This document shows positions 7,386 to 63,216 of a stretch of DNA of 64,000 nucleotides, one piece after another (the first letter of the stretch is position 1; every line of letters begins with the position of its first letter). Position numbers and translations under genes: made by a program. The notes under the pieces are model-generated. The model was not told the origin of the DNA and ran no database searches. It was given only the letters and a program-made list of their open reading frames with translations. The DNA lies in IMG/VR virus record IMGVR_UViG_2740892441_000001; one strand, written 5' to 3'. The DNA comes from a virus. Lineage: Duplodnaviria > Heunggongvirae > Uroviricota > Caudoviricetes.

Positions 7386-9419
7386 TTACTTAACCTGGTG
7401 GCCAGGTTTAGCACCAGCATCCGGGCTTAACAGGAAGATGTCTTTCCCGCCGGGGCCAGCAGCCATCACCATGCCTTCGGAGATACCGAAACGCATTTTA
7501 CGCGGAGCCAGGTTAGCCACCATAATGGTGTGACGGCCAATCAGTGCCTGTGGGTCTGGATAAGCGGAACGGATGCCTGAGAAGACATTGCGTTTTTCAC
7601 CGCCGAGATCCAGCGTCAGGCGCAGCAGTTTGTCAGAACCTTCAACAAAGTCTGCGTTTTCGATCAGCGCCACGCGCAGGTCAACTTTGGCAAAGTCGTC
7701 AAAGGTGATGGTTTCCTGAATCGGGTCGTCTGCCAGCGGGCCAGTAACTGGCGCGGCAGTAGCTTTCACTTCTTCTTTAGACGCTTCCACCAATGCTTCC
7801 ACCTGTTTCATGTCGATACGGTTATACAGTGCTTTGAACGGATTCACTTTATGGCCCAGCAGCGGTTGCTGGATACCATCCCAGGTCAGTTCTGTATTCA
7901 GGAATGCTTCTGCACGTTCAGTCAGTTTCGGCAGTACCGGCTTCAGGTACGTCATCAGCACGCGGAACAGGTTAATGCCCATAGAGCAAATCGCCTGCAG
8001 ATCGGCATCGCGTCCTTCCTGCTTCGCCACCACCCACGGAGCCTGTTCATCGACATAGCGGTTAGCCAGGTCAGCCAATGCCATGATTTCACGGATAGCT
8101 TTACCAAATTCGCGGCTTTCCCATGCTTCGCCAATCACTTCAGCGGCATCAGTAAAGGTTTTGTACAGTTGCGAGTCAGCCAGTTCGCTTGCCAGCACGC
8201 CGTCAAAACGCTTGTTGATAAAGCCTGCATTACGGGAGGCCAGGTTAACCACTTTGTTCACGATATCGGCATTCACGCGCTGAACGAAATCCTCCAGGTT
8301 GAGATCGATATCATCAATGCGCGAAGAGAGTTTCGCAGTGTAGTAGTAACGCAGGCTGTCGGCGTCAAAATGATTCATCCAGGTGCTGGCTTTAATAAAG
8401 GTGCCGCGAGACTTGGACATCTTCGCGCCGTTCACCGTCACATAGCCGTGAACAAACAGGTTGGTCGGCTTGCGGAAGTTGCTGCCTTCCAGCATGGCAG
8501 GCCAGAACAGGCTGTGGAAGTAAACGATATCTTTACCGATGAAGTGGTACAGCTCGGCGGTGGAGTCTTTCTTCCAGTATTCATCGAAGCTGGTAGTGTC
8601 GCCGCGCTTGTCGCACAGATTCTTGAAGGAACCCATGTAGCCAATCGGTGCGTCCAGCCAGACGTAGAAATATTTACCCGGCGCGTTCGGAATTTCAAAA
8701 CCGAAGTAAGGTGCGTCGCGGGAGATATCCCACTGTTGCAGACCAGATTCAAACCACTCCTGCATTTTGTTTGCCACCTGCTCCTGCAACGCACCGCTGC
8801 GGGTCCATGCCTGCAACATTTCGCTGAAAGAGGGCAGATCAAAGAAGAAGTGTTCAGAATCACGCATTACCGGCGTAGCGCCAGAAACTACCGATTTCGG
8901 CTCAATCAGTTCAGTCGGGCTGTAGGTCGCGCCGCAAACTTCACAGTTATCGCCGTATTGATCTGGCGCTTTACATTTCGGACAGGTGCCTTTCACAAAA
9001 CGATCCGGCAGGAACATGCCTTTTTCCGGGTCGTACAACTGAGAGATAGTGCGGTTTTTAATAAAACCGTTCTCTTTCAGGCGAGTATAGATAAGCTCAG
9101 ACAGCTGGCGGTTCTCTTCGCTGTGCGTCGAGTGATAGTTGTCATAGCTGATGTTAAAGCCTGCGAAATCAGTCTGGTGTTCCTGGCTCATTTCGCCAAT
9201 CATCTGTTCCGGTGTGATACCAAGCTGCTGTGCTTTCAGCATGATCGGCGTACCGTGGGCATCGTCGGCGCAGATGAAGTTGACCTCGTGGCCGCGCATT
9301 CGCTGGTAACGGACCCAGACATCAGCCTGGATGTGCTCCAGCATATGGCCGAGGTGGATTGAGCCGTTAGCGTACGGCAGCGCGCACGTCACCAGAATTT
9401 TCTTCGCGACTTGGGTCAT
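7386..9419 (-). CDS. metG: methionyl-tRNA synthetase
   Basis: 677 aa translation matches E. coli MetG along its length as recalled from memory ([31 protein letters not shown]...KPGHQVK); start set at the MTQVAKK ATG, upstream extension of the track ORF judged spurious. Confidence 0.95.
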
Positions 9420-9576
9420 AGTAGGCATTACTTCTTTGTAGTGAAAAGGGGCTTGATAGTAACAAAATGGCCTTATGTCTGCCATGTGATAACAGCATTT
9501 CTCATAAATGATTAAATGTCGTAGCTGGAGTACACTACAAGGCGACAATTGCGCAAATTAAAATAAAGGAGACGGG

Positions 9577-10677
9577 ATGAGCGAGTCCAAATCGCCGGAT
9601 GCCCTGAGAGCAATGGTAGCCGGTACGCTGGCTAATTTTCAGCACCCAACCCTGAAGCACAACCTGACTACGCTTAAAGCGTTACACCATGTTGCGTTGA
9701 TGGATGACACACTGCATGTCGAACTAATCATGCCTTTCGTGTGGAATAAGCCTTTTGAAGACCTGAAAGAGCAATGTAGTGGTGATCTGCTCCGTATCAC
9801 TGGCGCAAAGGCTATCGACTGGAAGCTGTCGTACAACATTGCCACGCTTAAGCGCGTCAAAAACCAACCAGGCATTAATGGCGTTAAGAACATCATCGCC
9901 GTCAGCTCAGGCAAGGGCGGTGTAGGCAAATCGTCCACAGCAGTAAACTTGGCACTGGCGTTGGCTGCTGAAGGTGCGAAAGTTGGTATTTTGGATGCCG
10001 ATATCTACGGTCCATCAATTCCAACCATGCTGGGTGCGGAAAACCAACGTCCAACCTCACCGGACGGTACTCACATGGCACCTATCATGTCTCATGGCCT
10101 GGCAACCAACTCTATTGGTTATCTGGTCACCGACGACAATGCAATGGTGTGGCGTGGACCGATGGCCAGCAAGGCGTTAATGCAGATGTTGCAGGAAACT
10201 CTATGGCCTGATCTGGACTATCTCGTTCTCGATATGCCGCCGGGCACTGGTGATATTCAATTGACGCTGGCGCAGAACATTCCTGTAACTGGTGCTGTTG
10301 TGGTAACTACGCCGCAAGATATCGCGCTGATCGATGCGAAGAAAGGCATTGTGATGTTCGAAAAAGTCGAAGTGCCGGTACTGGGTATCGTCGAAAACAT
10401 GAGTGTGCATATTTGCAGTAACTGCGGTCATCACGAGCCAATTTTTGGCACCGGTGGCGCACAGAAGCTGGCCGAGAAATACAACACGCAGTTGTTAGGC
10501 CAAATGCCACTTCATATCTCTCTTCGTGAAGATCTGGATAACGGAACACCAACCGTTATTAGTCGTCCAGATAGCGAATTTACGGCTATTTATCGTGACC
10601 TCGCAGATCGCGTTGCTGCCCAAATGTATTGGCAAGGTGAAGTAATACCTGGCGAAATCGCATTCCGCGCAGTGTGA
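9577..10677 (+). CDS. apbC: Fe-S cluster carrier ATPase ApbC/Mrp
   Basis: 366 aa; strong match to enterobacterial Mrp/ApbC (P-loop SSGKGGVGKS, CSNCGHHEP motif); divergent from metG as in enterobacterial chromosomes. Confidence 0.93.
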   Translation: MSESKSPDALRAMVAGTLANFQHPTLKHNLTTLKALHHVALMDDTLHVELIMPFVWNKPFEDLKEQCSGDLLRITGAKAIDWKLSYNIATLKRVKNQPGINGVKNIIAVSSGKGGVGKSSTAVNLALALAAEGAKVGILDADIYGPSIPTMLGAENQRPTSPDGTHMAPIMSHGLATNSIGYLVTDDNAMVWRGPMASKALMQMLQETLWPDLDYLVLDMPPGTGDIQLTLAQNIPVTGAVVVTTPQDIALIDAKKGIVMFEKVEVPVLGIVENMSVHICSNCGHHEPIFGTGGAQKLAEKYNTQLLGQMPLHISLREDLDNGTPTVISRPDSEFTAIYRDLADRVAAQMYWQGEVIPGEIAFRAV

Positions 10678-10714: not shown

Positions 10715-11104
10715 CTACATCACAGGACAATCATCAAACTCGCCACTTCTTGCGTCGTTGATAATGTGAGTGATCACACCAAACACGGCATTGCTGCCCG
10801 TGCATCCATCATCATCCTTTGGCAATGCTTCCTTCTTACCAGTTCTTAAATCCTCCAGATGCTGACGTGGATACTTCCGGTATCTTTTTACGCGATATTC
10901 CCCATCCAGAGCACATACAAGAAGAGATCCATCAACAGGAGTGAGTGAGGAATCGACCACCAGCAATGCACCCTGCAATATTCCCTCACGATGATGACTA
11001 TCAGCCGCCCTCATGAAGTAGGTCGCTGAAGGATGTCTAATTATCTGCTGATCAAGAGAAATACGGCTCTCTGCATAATCCGCCGCAGGAGATGGGAAGC
11101 CCAT
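10715..11104 (-). CDS. humD: UmuD'-like S24-family protein lacking the cleavable N-terminal arm (HumD-like)
   Basis: Starts M-GFPSPAADY, aligned to Gly25 of E. coli UmuD (the RecA-mediated cleavage point); in-frame stop 5 codons upstream excludes an N-terminal arm; Ser and Lys of the S24 dyad retained; LexA box upstream. Confidence 0.7.
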   Translation of the reverse strand: MGFPSPAADYAESRISLDQQIIRHPSATYFMRAADSHHREGILQGALLVVDSSLTPVDGSLLVCALDGEYRVKRYRKYPRQHLEDLRTGKKEALPKDDDGCTGSNAVFGVITHIINDARSGEFDDCPVM

Positions 11105-12667: not shown

Positions 12668-12966
12668 TCGTCATCCTCATCCGAGTCATCCTCATCACAG
12701 GATGAGAGTAGTGGGTTAGTCATTCGCCCTACTTGAGTGGCGTAGCCACGCCGACAGAGATTGCGCAGCACACTGTATATTTCGAACATCTCGGTTCGTT
12801 CATCGCCAACATCAAGCTCAGATGCTATAGCGTGGCATTCAGTCGCGAGAGCCGATATTTTCTGAAATAACTCTGCTTTATTCACTCTTAGACTCCTGCG
12901 GAGGTTCTGGTAGCGGCATCCAGTGAGTTGCTTGCTCAATACCATTACCCGGCTTAATCGTTGCAT
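12664..12966 (-). CDS. hypothetical protein (start uncertain)
   Basis: 100 aa ORF whose 5-prime end overlaps the upstream gene in another frame; true start may be internal. Confidence 0.25.
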   Translation of the reverse strand: MQRLSRVMVLSKQLTGCRYQNLRRSLRVNKAELFQKISALATECHAIASELDVGDERTEMFEIYSVLRNLCRRGYATQVGRMTNPLLSSCDEDDSDEDDE

Positions 12967-13612
12967 CTCCGCGCCGAAAGGTGCTTCCGGTATAGCGTGC
13001 GGAGCATATTAGCGGTTCAACCAGAGAGCTATCGAAATTCACCGAAATAAGCACGTTCTGGCCCTTTTCAGGCATTCGCTCACTACAGCTTATCCAACCA
13101 TCCGGAGTTACCGGATTGTTGCCAGCCTCATACGCGACCCTTATCCAGTGCATAAGCATTTCAGTACTTACACATCCACAATCAACATCAATTTTGTCAT
13201 GCTGCTGTTCCAGCCATTGCTCAAAAGTTAACTTGTAAGTTTGGCTTACAGGTTTGGCTTCCAGTTCTGCTATGTGATTTTTGGCTGATTCCAACTCAAT
13301 CGACAATTTTTCCAACTGCTCTTTATGATTTTTATATTCCTGATATGCGTGCCAAGACTGACCTTTGCGCACACTATCAGTGATATCAGCAACCTGCTCT
13401 GGTGTTAGCGTGGTCAGTGGCTGTGCTGGAAAAATCATCACTTGCCCGGCATCCCAATCAAAACCCGCCTGAATTGACTGAACCTCAACTGATGGTGTTG
13501 AACCGATGCGACCAGGCGAATGAACAACGATCGTTACATCCATATCGCGACGATGGCTGTGGTTGTTGGACAAAATACGATTCACCGACTCAGAAAATTT
13601 GGAAAATTTCAT
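12878..13612 (-). CDS. hypothetical protein with DUF551-like C-terminal motif (tentative)
   Basis: Start set at MKFSKF ATG forming an ATGA overlap with the upstream stop; C-terminal HWMPLPEPP-type motif. Confidence 0.45.
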
Positions 13613-13935
13613 GCTGACCCCTCTTTCTCTCCCCGGATAATTCTGTTGCACACATCCACACACTCGTCGCAGATGAAAACGGCGTCCCCAGCAATTAACT
13701 TTTTGACGGCGTACTGGGATTTGTTGCAGAAGCTGCAACAAAGTGTTCGCCTGGCTGATAAGGATGGAGCGCCAGATGTCAGCCGCTCCATATCGTTCTT
13801 GCGACGCAATATCACACGGCTGAACTCAACCAGTTTCTCCGGGGATATCTCCTCCTCCTCCGTAGCGAGCGTCTCTAGTCGTTCGAGTATGTGGAAGGCT
13901 TTTTCCTGGGTAATTGCAGAATGCGATGTGGTCAT
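13609..13935 (-). CDS. small protein with ClpX-type C4 zinc-binding domain
   Basis: C-terminal [31 protein letters not shown] closely resembles the ClpX N-terminal zinc-binding domain (LYCSFCGKSQHEVRKLIAG..YICDECVDLC, recalled from memory); no AAA+ module follows. Confidence 0.55.
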
Positions 13936-13936
13936 C

Positions 13937-14548
13937 TCACTCTCCTTTGATGCGAATGCCAGGGGCGCGTGGCACATTAACTTCCACGATGCGCACTGTT
14001 GGTTTGTACATCTCAATCGCTGTCAGCCAGTCAGCTCCTGTCATGCGCTTTTCCGCATCGCCATTAGTCCACTGAACCGGTACACCAATAGCCTTCATCG
14101 CGATTTCTATTTCCCCGGCAATGGCGCTTTTTCCGCAACCAGTAAAACCAGATACAACGACCAGAACTTCACCTTTGGCTGGTTTTATTTCCCGTGCTTC
14201 CAGTTCTGCAATGCGCTTACTTCCATCCGAGATAACGCCCTCGTAATACTCACGCTGCTCGTTGAGTTTTGATTTTGCCAACTCCAGTTGTTTTGTTAGT
14301 TCTGCAATACGACAAACATCGTTGATACGCGTTTCCTCTAATGCGTTGCTCTCATCCAGTAGCGCCAGCACGGTTTCTGGTCCGGCCAGAAATTTGAAGG
14401 CGTTGAGGGCATCAATATCAACACCGCTATCTTTAAGTTCCTGTTCGCTTATCAGATCATCATCAACTGGCAACATTAACAGGCGTTCCATTGCCGGAAT
14501 TGCACGCTCTGCCGCCTCACGCAGTGCCTGATAGTCAATCTTGCTCAC
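13937..14548 (-). CDS. hypothetical protein, paralogous module shared with 14545-14988, short Walker-A-like GFTGCGKS
   Basis: 203 aa; shares VLALLDE..LE.T.I..CRI.EL segment with the adjacent gene. Confidence 0.5.
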
Positions 14549-15022: not shown

Positions 15023-15352
15023 TTATTTTGCTTTGAGCAACTTCATCGCTTCGTCAATGCGTGATTGTGTCCCTGCGTTTGGCTCCACTACCTGAAGGCG
15101 GCGGGCATCTTCAAGAAGTTTCGCAATCATTTCTTTAAGTACTTCGTTATCGTTATTCATGAGCGTGCTCCTGTCAGTTAGCTTTGAGTAACGCGCCGCG
15201 ATTTGCATCTCCACGGTTCCGTCATGCAATGCAACAATCTCTCGGACAGCAACCGGGTGGTTGATGTAGTCTTCGCCGGTATATTTTCTTTTCTGACCAA
15301 CGCCACCATGAGCGCCAGCGGCGAACATATGAGCTTCGGAAATACTAGACAT
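15023..15352 (-). CDS. short HD-domain protein resembling the N-terminal half of Mesh1/SpoT-type (p)ppGpp hydrolases (tentative)
   Basis: AHGGVGQKRKYTGEDYINHPVAV...ALHDGTVE matches the H...HD signature; only 109 aa. Confidence 0.45.
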   Translation of the reverse strand: MSSISEAHMFAAGAHGGVGQKRKYTGEDYINHPVAVREIVALHDGTVEMQIAARYSKLTDRSTLMNNDNEVLKEMIAKLLEDARRLQVVEPNAGTQSRIDEAMKLLKAK

Positions 15353-16617: not shown

Positions 16618-18303
16618 TTATTTAACGCGTTTGAAAACGTATACGCTGACTGTGATCCCGGTATCTTCAAACTCGTTGGTAAACGACTTCCCTTTGGCAT
16701 AAACGTAATTATCCATCGTCATCCAGCTCAGGATTGGCGCAGTGCCCGGCAATACTGCTACAAGACGCCCGCCGACTTTCAGATGCCCCAGCGCAGCCAG
16801 CGTGTGCTCTCTATGACGACCAAGCGAGTACGGCGGGTTCATAACGATTTTGTCGAACTGATAACCTGCGTTGTCCTCAGACCACTTTATGAAGTCACAG
16901 CAAATCGTGTTCGTATACCCTTTTCCACGCAGGATATCAGCGAAGAGAGGTGCGATTTCTATGCAGGTAACATCTTCCAGATCGGCGTTAATATAGGCCA
17001 GAAGATCCCCACGTCCGGCTTGAGGCTCCAGCAGCTTCTCACCAGGCTTCAATTCAGTGGCTCTGGCAACGTACTCAGCAATCAAGCGTGGGGTAGGGTA
17101 GAACTGGTGTGATTTTGTATCCGGTATTAAACCGGTAGCCACAATCGTATTTAGCGTATGGCCGATGTCATACGGGAACTGCCAGTGCTTTTTCTCCTGC
17201 ACGCCGCCAATGAAGCTCAGTGTGCGCTCAAGCTCTTCCACCTGCGACTTCTGGAGAGCTGAATCAGAGAAGTACCATACGCCTTTGTCTTTGCTCAATC
17301 GCCCGTCACGAAGCGCAGTGCGAACCGGCACGGAGATCGTCTTCTGGATTAAACCGAACTGCTTTGGTGCCCGTGTTTTTGGCGCAGTTCGGCATGGCGA
17401 GGGGATTGCAGCAGGCATACTGTAAGCCAGCACCTCATTCAACTTCCAGGCCACGTCAGGATGTATTTCAAAGTGAACGTTGCCGTTCTTGAACATCTTC
17501 ACGCGCATCAGATTTCCATCGACGTTCATCCAGTCACCGGTCTGGCAGTCGTTTGCCCTATACGCAGCTGATAGCACCTCAGCAGTGCGGTTGATGGTAA
17601 TAAATTCTTTGTGCGCGAAGAAATGAAGCAAGACACGCAGATCGTCGATGTAGTCCTCTTTGCGATAGTTCACGCTAACGCTGTCCCGCCAGAAATCAGA
17701 AATGCAGTCAGCGATTATCAGACGCTCGCTGAAACCGTTTGTCTTATTTGTCTTGTGCGCAGGACTCAGCGCCTTAAACAAGCCATACACGCGCTCAGAG
17801 AGATATTTGTGCCTGTCATTCAGCAAATTAAGCATCGTGGGTATGACCGTTTCTGCTTTGAACTCCGGTACACCAACGAACTCTTTAACCTTCATCTGGT
17901 AGCCGGTTCTGTCGGTTTTGATGACTTCCTGTTTGCCCTCTATAAACTGCTCGCGCCACTCATCTCGACGGGAAGCTGGCATGATCAGCAAAACGTTAGT
18001 CATGTCCGTGACCTTCCTCCAGTACTCGGCCCAAATATTCTGTTTCACCCATTCCAGATCGACTTTATCCAGCCAAGCTCGATTCAAACGTGAGCGTTCT
18101 TCATCTGGTCGGTGGTTCAGTTGCAGCAGGCGATTAATCATGTTGTGGCGTTCGTCGCCATAAACGAAGTCGTGAACCTGGTACATGAAAGCGATCTCTT
18201 TCTCGCACTCGGCCACAATTTCGTGGATGACGTTCATTTCCTGCCGATAGTCGATAGCAGTGTTTGAGTTGGCATCGTCGATGATGGAAAGGGCTGTATT
18301 CAT
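16618..18303 (-). CDS. N6-adenine DNA methyltransferase, gamma-class motif order, with about 400 aa N-terminal region
   Basis: C-terminal FYPTP...LLEPQAGRGDLL...VMNPPY (motifs I and IV as in TaqI-like N6A MTases); no adjacent restriction gene recognised. Confidence 0.6.
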   Translation of the reverse strand: MNTALSIIDDANSNTAIDYRQEMNVIHEIVAECEKEIAFMYQVHDFVYGDERHNMINRLLQLNHRPDEERSRLNRAWLDKVDLEWVKQNIWAEYWRKVTDMTNVLLIMPASRRDEWREQFIEGKQEVIKTDRTGYQMKVKEFVGVPEFKAETVIPTMLNLLNDRHKYLSERVYGLFKALSPAHKTNKTNGFSERLIIADCISDFWRDSVSVNYRKEDYIDDLRVLLHFFAHKEFITINRTAEVLSAAYRANDCQTGDWMNVDGNLMRVKMFKNGNVHFEIHPDVAWKLNEVLAYSMPAAIPSPCRTAPKTRAPKQFGLIQKTISVPVRTALRDGRLSKDKGVWYFSDSALQKSQVEELERTLSFIGGVQEKKHWQFPYDIGHTLNTIVATGLIPDTKSHQFYPTPRLIAEYVARATELKPGEKLLEPQAGRGDLLAYINADLEDVTCIEIAPLFADILRGKGYTNTICCDFIKWSEDNAGYQFDKIVMNPPYSLGRHREHTLAALGHLKVGGRLVAVLPGTAPILSWMTMDNYVYAKGKSFTNEFEDTGITVSVYVFKRVK

Positions 18304-45619: not shown

Positions 45620-47959
45620 TTAATCTTCTAGTTCTTCTGTTGGTGATGTCTTCTCTCGTCGGTCATCTATCGCCTGTAACGCAGCAATGATTTCAGCCAG
45701 TGGCTTCTCCCGATACATCTCGACGATCTGCGATTTGGTGTATTTCTTGTCACCAATTTCAACTCTCCCGCTGGCGTTCTTTGGCAGGTATCCTTCTTCC
45801 AGCATGTACTCGACGAGCGATTCGATAACGTCGAGGCCACGAGTAGGATCGAAGTAGAATTTCCAGGTGCATTTGCCATACGGTGGTGCAACTTTGTTTT
45901 TGATGCACTCTGCGCCTACGTCCTGACCGATCTTCTCTTTCCCATCCTTCATCACCGATGCACCGAGACGGATGCGCACAGAAGCGTAAAACTTCGGTGA
46001 ATCGCCGCCTGGAGACGTAGTAGGGTCGCCAAACATTACACCGATTTTTGTGCGAACCTGATTCAAGAAGATGATGCAGGCGTTGTATTTGCGTGCCCAC
46101 AAAGCCAGAGTAGGGAAGTTCGCACTCGTCGCACGCGCCAGTGCCGTATTGTCGTTCATGTTTAGCTGATCTTTGTCTTTGGCTGTGCCTTCAGCCATCT
46201 TTTCGAACTTCTCGGCTTTGGAGTTCGGAACCATAGACGCAAGAGAGTCAGCCACGATACAGATAGGTGCTGATTCGGGGATAAGCTCTTCATCACGAAC
46301 CAATTTAAGTATTGTGCCGATCAACTCTACAGAGTCTTCGAAGGTATCTGGCTGCTTGTATACCCACTGACCGTCATCCTCATCTGCATTCAAACCATTG
46401 GCTACAGCCAGGCCAACGTCAAAACTGTTTTCATGATCGAGGAATACCGCCAGACCATCTTGTTTTTGAGCGGAGATCATCGCTGCTGTTGCAAGGAATG
46501 TGTTGTGGCTGATAATCCCGTTAGACCAGAAAGAGTGTGTTTCCGGCATCGCTACGTCGAACGTTGGTGCTTCACCTTCCTCAATAGCCACGACTTCGTC
46601 GTAGAACAAGTTAGAGCCAATTACCGCTGCCAGTTGTGCAAACAGATGCTCGTTAAAACGATTCTTTCTGCCAATGAAGGAGACATAGATTTCTCGCAGT
46701 TTGTCTATTCCGACACGATCGCCGCGGCCAATAACGTGGTCTACCAGAGCGTAGTCTTCACGGGTGGTCTTGGTGAGCGACTCGTAGAGTGATTTCACTA
46801 AGCCGCTGATGTGCGGAACATAGCCTGAGTAAGTGCGGTCAAAACCAATGTCCCGTTTGGTTGCCACTGATAAACGTGCCGGAGATTCGAAACCAATCGT
46901 TGACAGAAAAAGGTCGTAATTAGAGCCACTGAATGACAGCCGGTAATATGTATTTTCATAACCCGCGACGTGTTTTTCAGAGATAGTTGACGTAATCCCC
47001 AGATTCAGGAGCATGAGGCGAATTTGCTGTAGCAGCAGCCCACTCGCGCTCACAACCTCAATGCAGCGACCATCATTGACGTGGCATTCCAGCTCAAAGT
47101 AGCCGCGAAGGAATGCAATTTGAGCCTCGCTATTGGCGCGACGCACACTCAACGGAACCTGCTTGCCAGCAGCTTTCTCATACTCCAGACCATATTCTTT
47201 AAAAAGCAGCGAACGCACCTCTTTGCTAAACAGCACATGGTCTTCCGAGCCGTTATGTTTTCTCGTAACTGGCATCTTGTCTGATACCAGCGAAATGAGG
47301 CGGTAGTACTCATCCTTGATGAAAGGATCTGTGTTAGAAAAATTCACTGAATTTTCAGAGGCCACGTATCCGTCAGCAATTAAATAGCCCATCAGTTTTG
47401 CGATATTGGCATCCAGGTGCTGATCGCCGAATTGATGTGTGCCAACCATTGAAGGAATCGTGTCGCCTACACTGATTTTTTCAGCATGTCGCCAGACGAC
47501 ATTACCTAAGTCGTCAACCACACGGATTGGGTGACGGAACGTAGCCTCGATATAACCGCCTGATGCCAGCTTAATACGCTTGAATTTGCGACGGTTGTTC
47601 CATGTCAGGTGTGAGGTCTTCTCTATCACGCCATTTTCATTGATGAGTCCAACGTTATGCTCTACATCGCGAGTAGTGCATGTCGCTTTGTACCCTTCAA
47701 TCTCAAACAACTCTTTCACTGTTACCATTCCACGCTCCGTCAGCAGCATGGTGTCTGCGGTAACACATTTCCCCGCACTTGGAGGACCGAATACTTCGAC
47801 GATACGACCACATGGGAAACCGCCATCGTAACGACCGGAAATCGCTTTGTTTAACGGAGGAAAGCCTGTGTCAATCCAATGAGTTACTTTCTGAATTTCG
47901 TCGTTGCTACCGATTTTCTTTTTCAGAGCAAGTGCCAGTGCGGATTTTCCTTTTGCCAT
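45620..47959 (-). CDS. recA: RecA-like recombinase interrupted by an in-frame intein
   Basis: Exteins give GPPSAGK|TFLAT (Walker A) and a RecA-like C-terminal core (IFLNQVRTKIGVMFGDPTTSPGG..KFYASVRIRL); about 357 aa without the intein. Confidence 0.8.
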   Translation of the reverse strand: MAKGKSALALALKKKIGSNDEIQKVTHWIDTGFPPLNKAISGRYDGGFPCGRIVEVFGPPSAGKCVTADTMLLTERGMVTVKELFEIEGYKATCTTRDVEHNVGLINENGVIEKTSHLTWNNRRKFKRIKLASGGYIEATFRHPIRVVDDLGNVVWRHAEKISVGDTIPSMVGTHQFGDQHLDANIAKLMGYLIADGYVASENSVNFSNTDPFIKDEYYRLISLVSDKMPVTRKHNGSEDHVLFSKEVRSLLFKEYGLEYEKAAGKQVPLSVRRANSEAQIAFLRGYFELECHVNDGRCIEVVSASGLLLQQIRLMLLNLGITSTISEKHVAGYENTYYRLSFSGSNYDLFLSTIGFESPARLSVATKRDIGFDRTYSGYVPHISGLVKSLYESLTKTTREDYALVDHVIGRGDRVGIDKLREIYVSFIGRKNRFNEHLFAQLAAVIGSNLFYDEVVAIEEGEAPTFDVAMPETHSFWSNGIISHNTFLATAAMISAQKQDGLAVFLDHENSFDVGLAVANGLNADEDDGQWVYKQPDTFEDSVELIGTILKLVRDEELIPESAPICIVADSLASMVPNSKAEKFEKMAEGTAKDKDQLNMNDNTALARATSANFPTLALWARKYNACIIFLNQVRTKIGVMFGDPTTSPGGDSPKFYASVRIRLGASVMKDGKEKIGQDVGAECIKNKVAPPYGKCTWKFYFDPTRGLDVIESLVEYMLEEGYLPKNASGRVEIGDKKYTKSQIVEMYREKPLAEIIAALQAIDDRREKTSPTEELED
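46502..47767 (-). mobile_element. intein with LAGLIDADG homing-endonuclease domain inserted in the RecA P-loop
   Basis: Begins with Cys after GPPSAGK, ends ...SHN before Thr; LAGLIDADG-like blocks LMGYLIADGYV and FLRGYFELECHV; 422 aa. Confidence 0.7.
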
Positions 47960-62968: not shown

Positions 62969-63055
62969 TGGCGGAGAGTAATGGAATCGAACCATCATCG
63001 CTTGCGCAATGGGACGGTTTTCAAGACCGCTTGAGCACCATGCTCTCTACTCTCC
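62969..63055 (-). tRNA. tRNA-Ser(TGA)
   Basis: Hand-folded: acceptor GGAGAGT/ACTCTCC, anticodon loop CTTGAAA, long variable arm, T-loop TTCGATT, encoded CCA; 87 nt. Confidence 0.7.
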
Positions 63056-63063
63056 AATTGTGT

Positions 63064-63139
63064 TGGTGCCGGTTAACGGATTCGAACCGCTGACATCCTG
63101 CTTACAAGGCAGGTGCTCTACCAACTGAGCTAAACCGGC
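63064..63139 (-). tRNA. tRNA-Thr(TGT)
   Basis: Hand-folded: acceptor GCCGGTT/AACCGGC, D-arm GCTC-AGTTGGTA-GAGC, anticodon loop CTTGTAA, T-loop TTCGAAT, encoded CCA; 76 nt. Confidence 0.8.
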
Positions 63140-63141
63140 AT

Positions 63142-63216
63142 TGGCGATGGTGGGTGGATTCGAACCACCGACCAGTTGGTTAACAGCCAACTGCTCTACC
63201 GCTGAGCTACACCATC
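63142..63216 (-). tRNA. tRNA-Asn(GTT)
   Basis: Hand-folded: acceptor GATGGTG/CACCATC, anticodon loop CTGTTAA, T-arm GGTGG-TTCGAAT-CCACC, encoded CCA; 75 nt. Confidence 0.8.

Follow-up and report, generated by a model that had tools for sequence, protein, structure and literature searches.

T4 PinA and T7 Gp4.5 are small phage proteins that act on the Lon protease of the host. SPO1 Gp53 is likewise a small phage protein, which re-programmes or inhibits a host ATP-dependent protease, in this case ClpC (PMC6873191). A third protease, ClpXP, governs sigma-S, proteins of SOS mutagenesis, antitoxins and the proteins with which phages lambda and Mu replicate, and its selectivity is exerted largely through the zinc-binding domain (ZBD) at the N-terminus of ClpX. 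The ZBDs dimerise via their C-terminal helices and two beta-hairpins (PMC5890618). The residues F16 and I46 of ClpX (F17 and I47 when counted from Met1) form a hydrophobic pocket for lambda O, trigger factor, SspB and RssB (PMC7804408). With numbering from Met1, L12, L13 and H23 are required for the MqsA degron, which binds the ClpX N-domain; H23 is also required for the SspB tail, and L13 and H23 are located in or near the SspB-tail site (PMC8808172). When supplied in trans, the isolated ClpX ZBD inhibits the RssB-mediated breakdown of sigma-S in vitro (PMC7226468).

Other described proteins resemble parts of these unfoldases or act on their delivery pathways. ClpC2 of mycobacteria, which is partially homologous to ClpC1, combines a dimerisation region at its N-terminus with a ligand-binding C-terminal domain and acts as a molecular sponge for binders of the unfoldase (PMC10030653). 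The anti-adaptors IraP, IraM, IraD and the prophage-encoded AppY are small and in some cases horizontally acquired, and are reported to stop the delivery of sigma-S to ClpXP while the protease active site is left untouched (PMC4428439, PMC10057817, PMC7226468). CsfB (Gin), an anti-sigma factor of Bacillus subtilis, is a small free treble-clef zinc protein that forms a ClpX N-domain-like dimer and targets sigma factors; it is approximately 20% identical to ClpX, and the authors of that study doubted that the two are related (PMC5890618).

Here we describe a phage-encoded protein of 108 amino acids in which a ClpX-type ZBD is preceded by an orphan helical domain of 62 amino acids. The gene is located in a stretch of 64,000 nucleotides (IMG/VR record IMGVR_UViG_2740892441_000001), which is referred to as the window. 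Compared to ClpX, the protein lacks the AAA+ ring, and its gene is not part of a clpP-clpX locus. Its architecture parallels that of ClpC2, with competition for ligands being putative for the phage protein. ClpC2 differs in its unfoldase and fold, in being chromosomal, in its role in antibiotic protection and in being a DNA-binding autoregulator, and has no sequence relationship to the phage protein. The anti-adaptors bind RssB via folds of their own, and none of those named above copies a ClpX domain. Gp53, PinA and Gp4.5 differ in that they act on other proteases, do not mimic a domain of their target and are encoded by lytic phages.

The original prediction, which was made from the DNA sequence, was not aware that such a protein had been described for a mobile element. 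Our literature searches turned up no functional study of the family. However, the family has already been named by its domain: the RefSeq name is 'ClpX C4-type zinc finger protein' (older records carry the name 'carboxylate--amine ligase', apparently mis-transferred), and PHROG 6797 ('unknown function') matches the protein over its full length (E=6.6e-57). The sequence family is thus already known, whereas, judging by the literature searches, the function proposed below and the wide occurrence of stand-alone ZBDs among phages appear undescribed.

Gene, operon and carrier elements

The ZBD gene (Table 1) is located within a run of at least 11 tightly spaced or overlapping minus-strand genes, which extends from approximately position 18303 down to 11275. 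The run encodes a DUF4942-type methyltransferase, several proteins of unknown function, a truncated HD-domain protein and two Ead/Ea22-like proteins, in addition to the ZBD protein, the DUF551 protein, two further proteins of unknown function and a toprim/primase-like protein. The ATGA overlap within an operon that had been read from the sequence is real and is shared with the downstream DUF551 gene, and the identical arrangement of these two genes is found in NZ_CP027369. No prominent promoter or terminator of its own was found for the ZBD gene in the gene run, where predicted sites were fewer than in shuffled sequence; terminator-like hairpins come after the toprim gene and after the HumD gene. 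The ZBD gene would be expressed from inside this long operon, which comprises early and accessory genes.

Table 1. Positions of the ZBD gene, its parts and selected surrounding genes in the window
Feature	Position	Strand	Remarks
Stand-alone ZBD protein, CDS	13609..13935	minus	108 aa, stop codon counted; start ATG 13935..13933, stop TGA 13611..13609; ORF list and sequence
N-terminal orphan domain	13750..13935	minus	Residues 1-62; two predicted helices, then disordered linker
ClpX-type C4 zinc-binding domain	13627..13749	minus	Residues 63-103; Pfam, PDB, Foldseek
Codons of predicted zinc ligands	C67 13735..13737; C70 13726..13728; C89 13669..13671; C92 13660..13662	minus
Shine-Dalgarno-like AAGGAG	13942..13947	minus	6 bases 5' of the ZBD-gene ATG; read from sequence
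ATGA overlap	13609..13612	minus	ZBD-gene stop and DUF551-gene start; sequence
DUF551 gene	12878..13612	minus	Downstream of the ZBD gene; DUF551 E=1.6e-23; ATG 13612..13610
Ead/Ea22-like gene	13937..14548	minus	Directly upstream, same operon; Pfam Ead_Ea22 E=1.1e-22; stop TGA 13939..13937, 1 base ahead of the ZBD-gene ATG
Truncated HD gene	15023..15352		One marginal PADLOC match (E=0.001), to the model of a type I specificity subunit
HumD family gene (UmuD'-like)	10715..11104		2.5 kb downstream of the ZBD gene

The 3 kb flanking the ZBD gene match approximately 690 plasmid records, most of which are non-mobilisable; those among the matches listed come from Escherichia or Shigella and measure 107-113 kb, with pECOH89 as one of them. 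Elsewhere in the window, a large ORF shows 99.7% identity to phage Cyrano, which is an SSU5-like phage-plasmid of E. coli LF82 (PMC9928086). Based on the plasmid matches and the identity of this ORF, and as judged from sequence, the window is an SSU5-like phage-plasmid. The ZBD gene has no match in Cyrano, a close relative, which shows that it is accessory and dispensable.

The gene was found in three kinds of elements: SSU5-like phage-plasmids, such as PhiR41_1 and CMS-2020a; phage D6 together with plasmids of approximately 90 kb that are probably D6/P1-like; and P2-like prophages, for example P88 and the prophage of UTI89. The carriers include phage-plasmids related to spreaders of resistance genes. 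The order in the P2-like prophages is invariably replication gene A, ParM, a StbB-like gene, the ZBD gene, variable genes and the portal gene. Matches were obtained in 220 of 5,426 complete E. coli genomes (approximately 4%), near-full-length in 110 genomes, with 106 plasmid and 127 chromosomal locations. IMG/VR contained 40 loci with the family, including the distant members L062 and L063. No family member was identified among 185,579 species-representative genomes, where clpX alone was found. The ZBD gene belongs to the accessory genes carried by temperate enterobacterial phages.

Ead/Ea22-like genes adjoin the ZBD gene also in D6 and in some of the P2-like prophages. They are frequent but commonplace in such regions, and the neighbours differ across the SSU5-like, D6-like and P2-like contexts, so that a fixed partner gene was rejected. 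A known anti-phage defence system was likewise rejected, as PADLOC-DB 2.0 gave no match for the ZBD protein; eight of the nine neighbouring proteins in the window and one P2-like locus also had no match.

The ClpX-type zinc-binding domain and the orphan region

The Pfam profile zf-C4_ClpX (PF06689; gathering score 27) matched residues 66-101 over profile positions 2-38 of 39, with 57.4 bits and E=1.3e-15. A phmmer search of the PDB retrieved the ZBD of E. coli ClpX (2ds5/1ovx) at E=7.5e-15. The alignment is ungapped, with residues 63-103 corresponding to chain positions 10-50 of 2ds5/1ovx and 28 of 41 residues being identical (E. coli ClpX 11-51). The AlphaFold2 (AF2) model, which was built on 26 homologues, contains a zinc-finger module at residues 66-105 with pLDDT values of 76-89. 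When compared by Foldseek, the predicted module was placed on 2DS5-2DS8 with an rmsd of 0.4-0.6 Å over 38 residues, at 68-71% identity and a probability of 1.00. The predicted fold is a treble clef that matches the solved ClpX ZBD.

No AAA+ module is present. The two NCBIfam ClpX equivalogs scored 42 bits (cut-off 359; model positions 4-46) and 40 bits (cut-off 371), and neither match extended outside model positions 4-48. Since the protein consists of only 108 amino acids and the scores fall far below the cut-offs, it is not a ClpX. These results confirm the original prediction of a ClpX-type ZBD without an AAA+ module, for which a profile search had been named as the check. The prediction had assigned the C-terminal 45 residues to the domain; the assignment stands, with an extent of approximately 41 residues.

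The four cysteines of the CxxC-x18-CxxC pattern (C67, C70, C89 and C92) are invariant in the 26 aligned homologues, and the same is true for F69, G83, I88, V93 and C96. The first cysteine of the CCSFC motif, C66, is not a zinc ligand; E. coli ClpX, like most of the homologues, has Tyr at this position. The hydrophobic residues of the dimer helix and hairpins are nearly the same in the phage domain (V94, V95, I99, I100, F87 and I88). Zinc binding and dimerisation in the manner of ClpX would be expected.

Residues that have been mapped to the ligand site of ClpX were compared across the family. The equivalent of F16, F69, is invariant, whereas the equivalent of I46, I99, is I, V or L in 24 of 26 distinct sequences. 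The equivalent of L13, L65, is kept in 23 of the 26 family sequences, and the H23 position is occupied by His in 17 of 26. The protein of the window has Tyr (Y75) at the H23 position and Thr (T64) at the L12 position. Thr is a natural residue at the latter position, as it occurs in the full-length ClpX sequences L064 and L065. At Y14, H23 and R49 there is agreement with E. coli ClpX, whereas the majority of the remaining ClpX ZBD fragments, a sample biased by the word-based search that yielded it, differ. Thus, based on the alignment, the experimentally mapped ligand-binding residues of ClpX are largely kept in the family.

Synonymous sites are saturated between the family and codons 12-50 of E. 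coli clpX (pS 0.81-0.95), while 23-30 of the 39 residues (59-77%) are identical. The saturation rules out a recent capture from the clpX gene of the host. Combined with the high amino acid identity, it shows that the ZBD has been held near ClpX by selection over a long time. The P88-type branch is most similar to ClpX, with the sequence AGPSVYIC and 30 of 39 identical residues. The branch of the window has AGD/E where ClpX has a near-universal AGP. Pairwise dN/dS values in the ZBD core within the family were 0.2-1.15, based on small counts, and the changes cluster at positions 12, 19, 21, 23, 24, 33, 42, 43, 46 and 47 (ClpX numbering from Met1). The fairly high values in the core could reflect an altered ligand, an arms race or a relaxation of constraint.

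The AF2 model of the N-terminal part contains helices at residues 10-25 and 32-53 followed by a disordered linker at residues 54-64, with pLDDT values of 52-68. Neither a Pfam search nor a sequence search of the PDB gave a match for this N-domain. A phmmer search with residues 1-61 against 1.84 billion representative proteins returned five matches at E<=1e-3. Four of these come from the family itself, as members or fragments. The remaining one, to a repeat protein of 650 amino acids (P0033, E=1.9e-4), most likely represents helical noise and was rejected as a relative. The description of an unrelated N-terminal region of approximately 60 amino acids was thereby upheld, with relatives confined to the family bar this one weak match. 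The motifs ER(L/M)E.LA.EE and (V/I).LRR..D are kept in the homologues, and the N-domain is under purifying selection (dN/dS 0.3-0.5), which argues that it has a function. Two amphipathic helices beside a putatively dimeric zinc domain may form an additional dimer contact or a surface for binding.

The 108-aa protein showed no Pfam or NCBIfam match to ClpXP adaptor families of the SspB, RssB or UmuD type. A conserved LRRK(N/D)D in helix 2 bears a superficial likeness to the XB motif LRVVK, without the second hydrophobic residue and in a segment predicted to be helical; an XB-like docking motif in the N-domain was weighed and found to be unsupported.

A comparison of the window with D6 revealed a difference between the two halves of the gene. 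The N-domains are near-identical (dS 0.02), whereas dS for the ZBD half is 0.18 with the C-terminal tail included and 0.09 for the core. This contrast suggests that recombination may have occurred inside the ZBD gene.

Possible action on ClpXP

The reading that we tentatively prefer is that the phage protein imitates the ClpX N-domain in trans and competes for the ligands of this domain. The phage ZBD would take hold of the short motifs by which adaptors and substrates are normally docked onto ClpX, with the XB tail of SspB, RssB, UmuD and the N-domain degrons of lambda O, MuA and MqsA as candidate ligands. N-domain-dependent clients would be held off ClpXP, and substrates that are recognised by the pore, such as ssrA-tagged proteins, would be spared. 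The orphan N-domain may add another surface for dimerisation or bring in a specific partner. Possible clients are sigma-S, together with RssB, and antitoxins whose degradation by ClpXP would activate a defence (CmdTAC, MqsA); the protection provided by CmdTAC is lost in a clpX deletion strain (bioRxiv 10.1101/2024.02.24.581848). The benefit to the phage could be the stabilisation of phage or host proteins against ClpXP, and the HumD gene lies near; it could also be a block of defences that are set off by ClpXP degradation of an antitoxin, or the exclusion of ClpX-dependent phages.

Several results are consistent with competition for N-domain ligands. According to Pfam, PDB and Foldseek the ZBD is a true one that closely resembles the domain of the host, it has been kept ClpX-like despite the saturation of synonymous sites, and the ligand-binding residues are largely retained. 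The inhibition of RssB-mediated sigma-S degradation by the isolated ZBD provides an in vitro precedent (PMC7226468), and the ClpC2 molecular sponge a precedent of the logic (PMC10030653). A decoy or adaptor role had already been put forward in the original prediction and is plausible. A gene of the HumD family is present at 10715..11104 in the window. Moreover, the ZBD gene moves as a single module among three unrelated phage backbones, with different neighbours in each, which suggests that the target belongs to the host and is not specific to a phage.

Other results fit less well. The protein of the window has Tyr and Thr at the positions of His23 and L12, although Thr is natural in full-length ClpX, and the near-universal AGP of ClpX is replaced by AGD/E. 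The dN/dS values in the ZBD core are fairly high within the family, again with small counts. A pure decoy does not explain the conserved orphan N-domain, a stoichiometric decoy would require high expression, and the gene is dispensable, as seen from Cyrano. If the preferred reading is true, the protein would be the first known viral factor to hit the docking step of ClpX through mimicry of the enzyme's own domain. The hypothesis is directly testable, since the protein is small and the reagents for ClpXP assays already exist.

The conserved second domain, with its dN/dS of 0.3-0.5, would fit the need of an adaptor. According to this alternative, which we consider unlikely, the phage protein docks onto ClpX as an adaptor or poison: its ZBD would heterodimerise with the ClpX ZBD, or otherwise occupy the ClpX ring, and the orphan N-domain placed on the unfoldase would deliver a new client for destruction or obstruct the enzyme. 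The nearly unchanged hydrophobic residues of the dimer helix and hairpins are in line with such a heterodimer. However, the hexamer holds its partner ZBDs at a very high local concentration, which the free domain must out-compete. Furthermore, no partner of the N-domain is evident, and the neighbouring genes vary between the phage backbones.

Reuse of the fold as a dimerisation or protein-binding module with a target unconnected with ClpXP, for example a regulator of phage or host transcription, is in our judgement improbable to a similar degree. CsfB illustrates the principle, being a small treble-clef zinc dimer similar to the ClpX N-domain that inhibits sigma factors (PMC5890618). Among the proteins collected, P0029 combines a ClpX-type ZBD with a C-terminal segment that by eye is helix-turn-helix-like, and the family itself shows variable surface positions and a change of the AGP of ClpX. 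However, CsfB is approximately 20% identical to ClpX, as compared to 59-77% in the 39-residue core of the phage proteins. The retention of the ligand-pocket residues despite saturated synonymous divergence is hard to reconcile with reuse of the fold for another purpose.

Less probable still is a variant in which the same decoy biochemistry serves the prophage to exclude phages that depend on the ClpX N-domain. Phage Mu, for instance, requires ClpX for the remodelling of the MuA transpososome. The gene is always located between replication gene A and the portal gene in the P2-like prophages, which is the position of tin and old in P2. An anti-phage system has been described from a P2-like phage, in its hypervariable region (bioRxiv 10.1101/2024.02.24.581848). 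However, no PADLOC model fits the ZBD protein, and the gene in the phage-plasmids belongs to an early operon (primase, methylase, Ead/Ea22) and not to an island expressed in lysogeny. Finally, a non-functional remnant or chance ORF, as might be proposed from the absence of the gene in some close relatives of the element, is hardly credible given a profile E-value of 1e-15, a good ribosome-binding site, invariant ligand cysteines, purifying selection on both halves and intact copies in 110 complete E. coli genomes and three phage groups.

Stand-alone zinc-binding domains in other viruses

A scan of IMG/VR, with contigs and ORFs taken as given, identified approximately 25 further viral contigs with small ORFs that encode a ClpX-type ZBD without AAA+. 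These are either bare domains of 54-80 amino acids or carry unrelated N- or C-terminal extensions, with lengths of up to 183 amino acids. The diversity of these stand-alone architectures argues that phages may have taken up the ZBD repeatedly, and repeated acquisition of free ZBDs would be in accordance with the preferred reading of ligand competition. It also suggests that the finding may generalise beyond one family, since many of the viral stand-alone ZBD proteins are unrelated.

A broader proposition is that free mimics of the ClpX docking domain, in temperate and lytic phages of many bacterial groups, would re-programme the host and phage targets of ClpXP. We regard this as possible, if doubtful. 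If true, it would represent a general and so far undescribed viral strategy against regulated proteolysis, with the E. coli family as a tractable first example. This family might then stabilise replication or translesion proteins, or disarm defences that are triggered by antitoxin degradation.

A survey of a database of 5.8 billion proteins was rejected as evidence for free ZBDs, because most of the matches of 50-80 amino acids looked like clpX fragments; the scan of IMG/VR took its place. In the sole context examined in this survey, that of P0065, a tig-clpP-clpX-lon locus is broken into several short ORFs.

Individual phages provide further cases. The Pseudomonas phage PP9W2 has a stand-alone ZBD of 65 amino acids in BFVD, and the T4-like Caulobacter phage Cr30 encodes one stand-alone ZBD, which is mis-annotated as a CDS of 41 amino acids. 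The small viral ZBD proteins, including the family studied here, match PHROGs 6797, 12435, 5259, 20296 and 3680, all of which are without an assigned function. PHROG 12435 is labelled 'protease', a name that has apparently been carried over from ClpX.

Small proteins with a ClpX-type zinc-binding domain in other viruses

Besides the family of the window's ZBD protein, small ORFs that encode a ClpX-type ZBD without an AAA+ module were found on about 25 further viral contigs in IMG/VR (loci L064-L092; 54-183 aa; examples in the table). The N- or C-terminal extensions of these proteins are not related to the window's ZBD family, and the PHROGs that they match (12435, 5259, 20296 and 3680) are all without a known function. 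A stand-alone ZBD ORF is also carried by the T4-like, lytic Caulobacter phage Cr30, where the deposited annotation contains only a CDS of 41 aa (positions 1636-1761 of locus L011), in which the zinc finger is halved.

Among the protein-database matches, the 133-aa protein P0029, from a 22.9-kb contig, has a stand-alone ZBD architecture unlike that of the window's protein: its N-terminal ClpX-type ZBD precedes a helical region, and its C-terminal segment (…VSWAQIGAALGISRQAAWERFG) looks like a helix-turn-helix. P0029 may be a regulator. Many of the "ZBD-only" proteins of 50-80 aa in the metagenome protein database (among P0034-P0100) resemble clpX fragments. P0065 (L010:3650-4889), the only such protein checked, is located on a 2.7-Mb contig in a tig-clpP-clpX-lon locus that is broken into several short ORFs.

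Features in the window and in related or comparable loci
Feature	Location	Strand	Remarks
Small ZBD ORFs without AAA+ module, IMG/VR contigs	L084:4001-4111; L087:4001-4102; L073:4001-4120; L077:4001-4138		Examples
Stand-alone ZBD ORF, Caulobacter phage Cr30	L011:1522-1761 (NC_025422 ~81470-81709)		72-79 aa
ParM/StbA and StbB-like genes	~3475-5714 in L002, L006, L009, L013, L014		P2-like prophages
Methionine--tRNA ligase	Window 7386-9548	-	Full-length; NCBIfam, 1017 bits
ApbC iron-sulfur carrier	Window 9577-10677	+	759 bits
HumD family protein	Window 10715-11104	-	129 aa; NCBIfam, E=8e-66
TTG-started ORF	Window 12878-13741	-	287 aa; DUF551 frame prolonged upstream across ZBD gene
Antisense ORF	Window 13520-14272	+	250 aa; overlaps ZBD and Ead/Ea22 genes
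HD-domain gene	Window 15023-15352	-	109 aa; HD_4 N-terminal part, PHROG 32391 tail
779-aa ORF	Window 45620-47959	-	99.7% identical to Cyrano ORF annotated RecA
Three clustered tRNA genes	Window 62969-63216	-	Ser-TGA, Thr-TGT, Asn-GTT

Possible recombination and overlapping frames in the ZBD gene

Compared with the homologue in phage D6 (L008:4001-4321), the N-domain half of the ZBD gene is almost identical (dS 0.02), whereas the ZBD half has diverged (dS 0.18 including the tail, 0.09 for the core alone). This contrast between the two halves is suggestive of a recombination junction where the N-domain meets the ZBD. The two ORFs that overlap the gene, one antisense and one TTG-started, are most likely mechanical; in the annotated DUF551 homologue, the start codon is the ATG within the ATGA overlap.

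In the P88-like P2-type prophages that carry the ZBD gene, replication gene A is separated from the ZBD gene by an actin-like ParM/StbA gene and a StbB-like partition gene, which is surprising in phages that integrate into the chromosome.

A candidate client and other genes of the window

The HumD gene shares its strand with the ZBD gene, from which it lies 2.5 kb downstream, and its product is a UmuD'-like subunit of translesion polymerase. Host UmuD' is among the substrates that contact the N-domain of ClpX, which makes HumD a candidate client.

The methionine--tRNA ligase and ApbC genes of the phage-plasmid are host-like housekeeping genes carried by a phage genome, and their arrangement is also present in NZ_CP027369. 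The counterpart of the HD-domain gene in NZ_CP027369 encodes 213 aa, as compared to 109 aa in the window, and the short version probably reflects either a deletion within the accessory operon or a mosaic junction there. In the 779-aa protein, residues ~61-494 are similar to SPO1-like phage helicases, some of which are annotated as intein-containing, and residues ~473-753 to RecA/UvsX; the ORF may represent a fusion or contain an intein.
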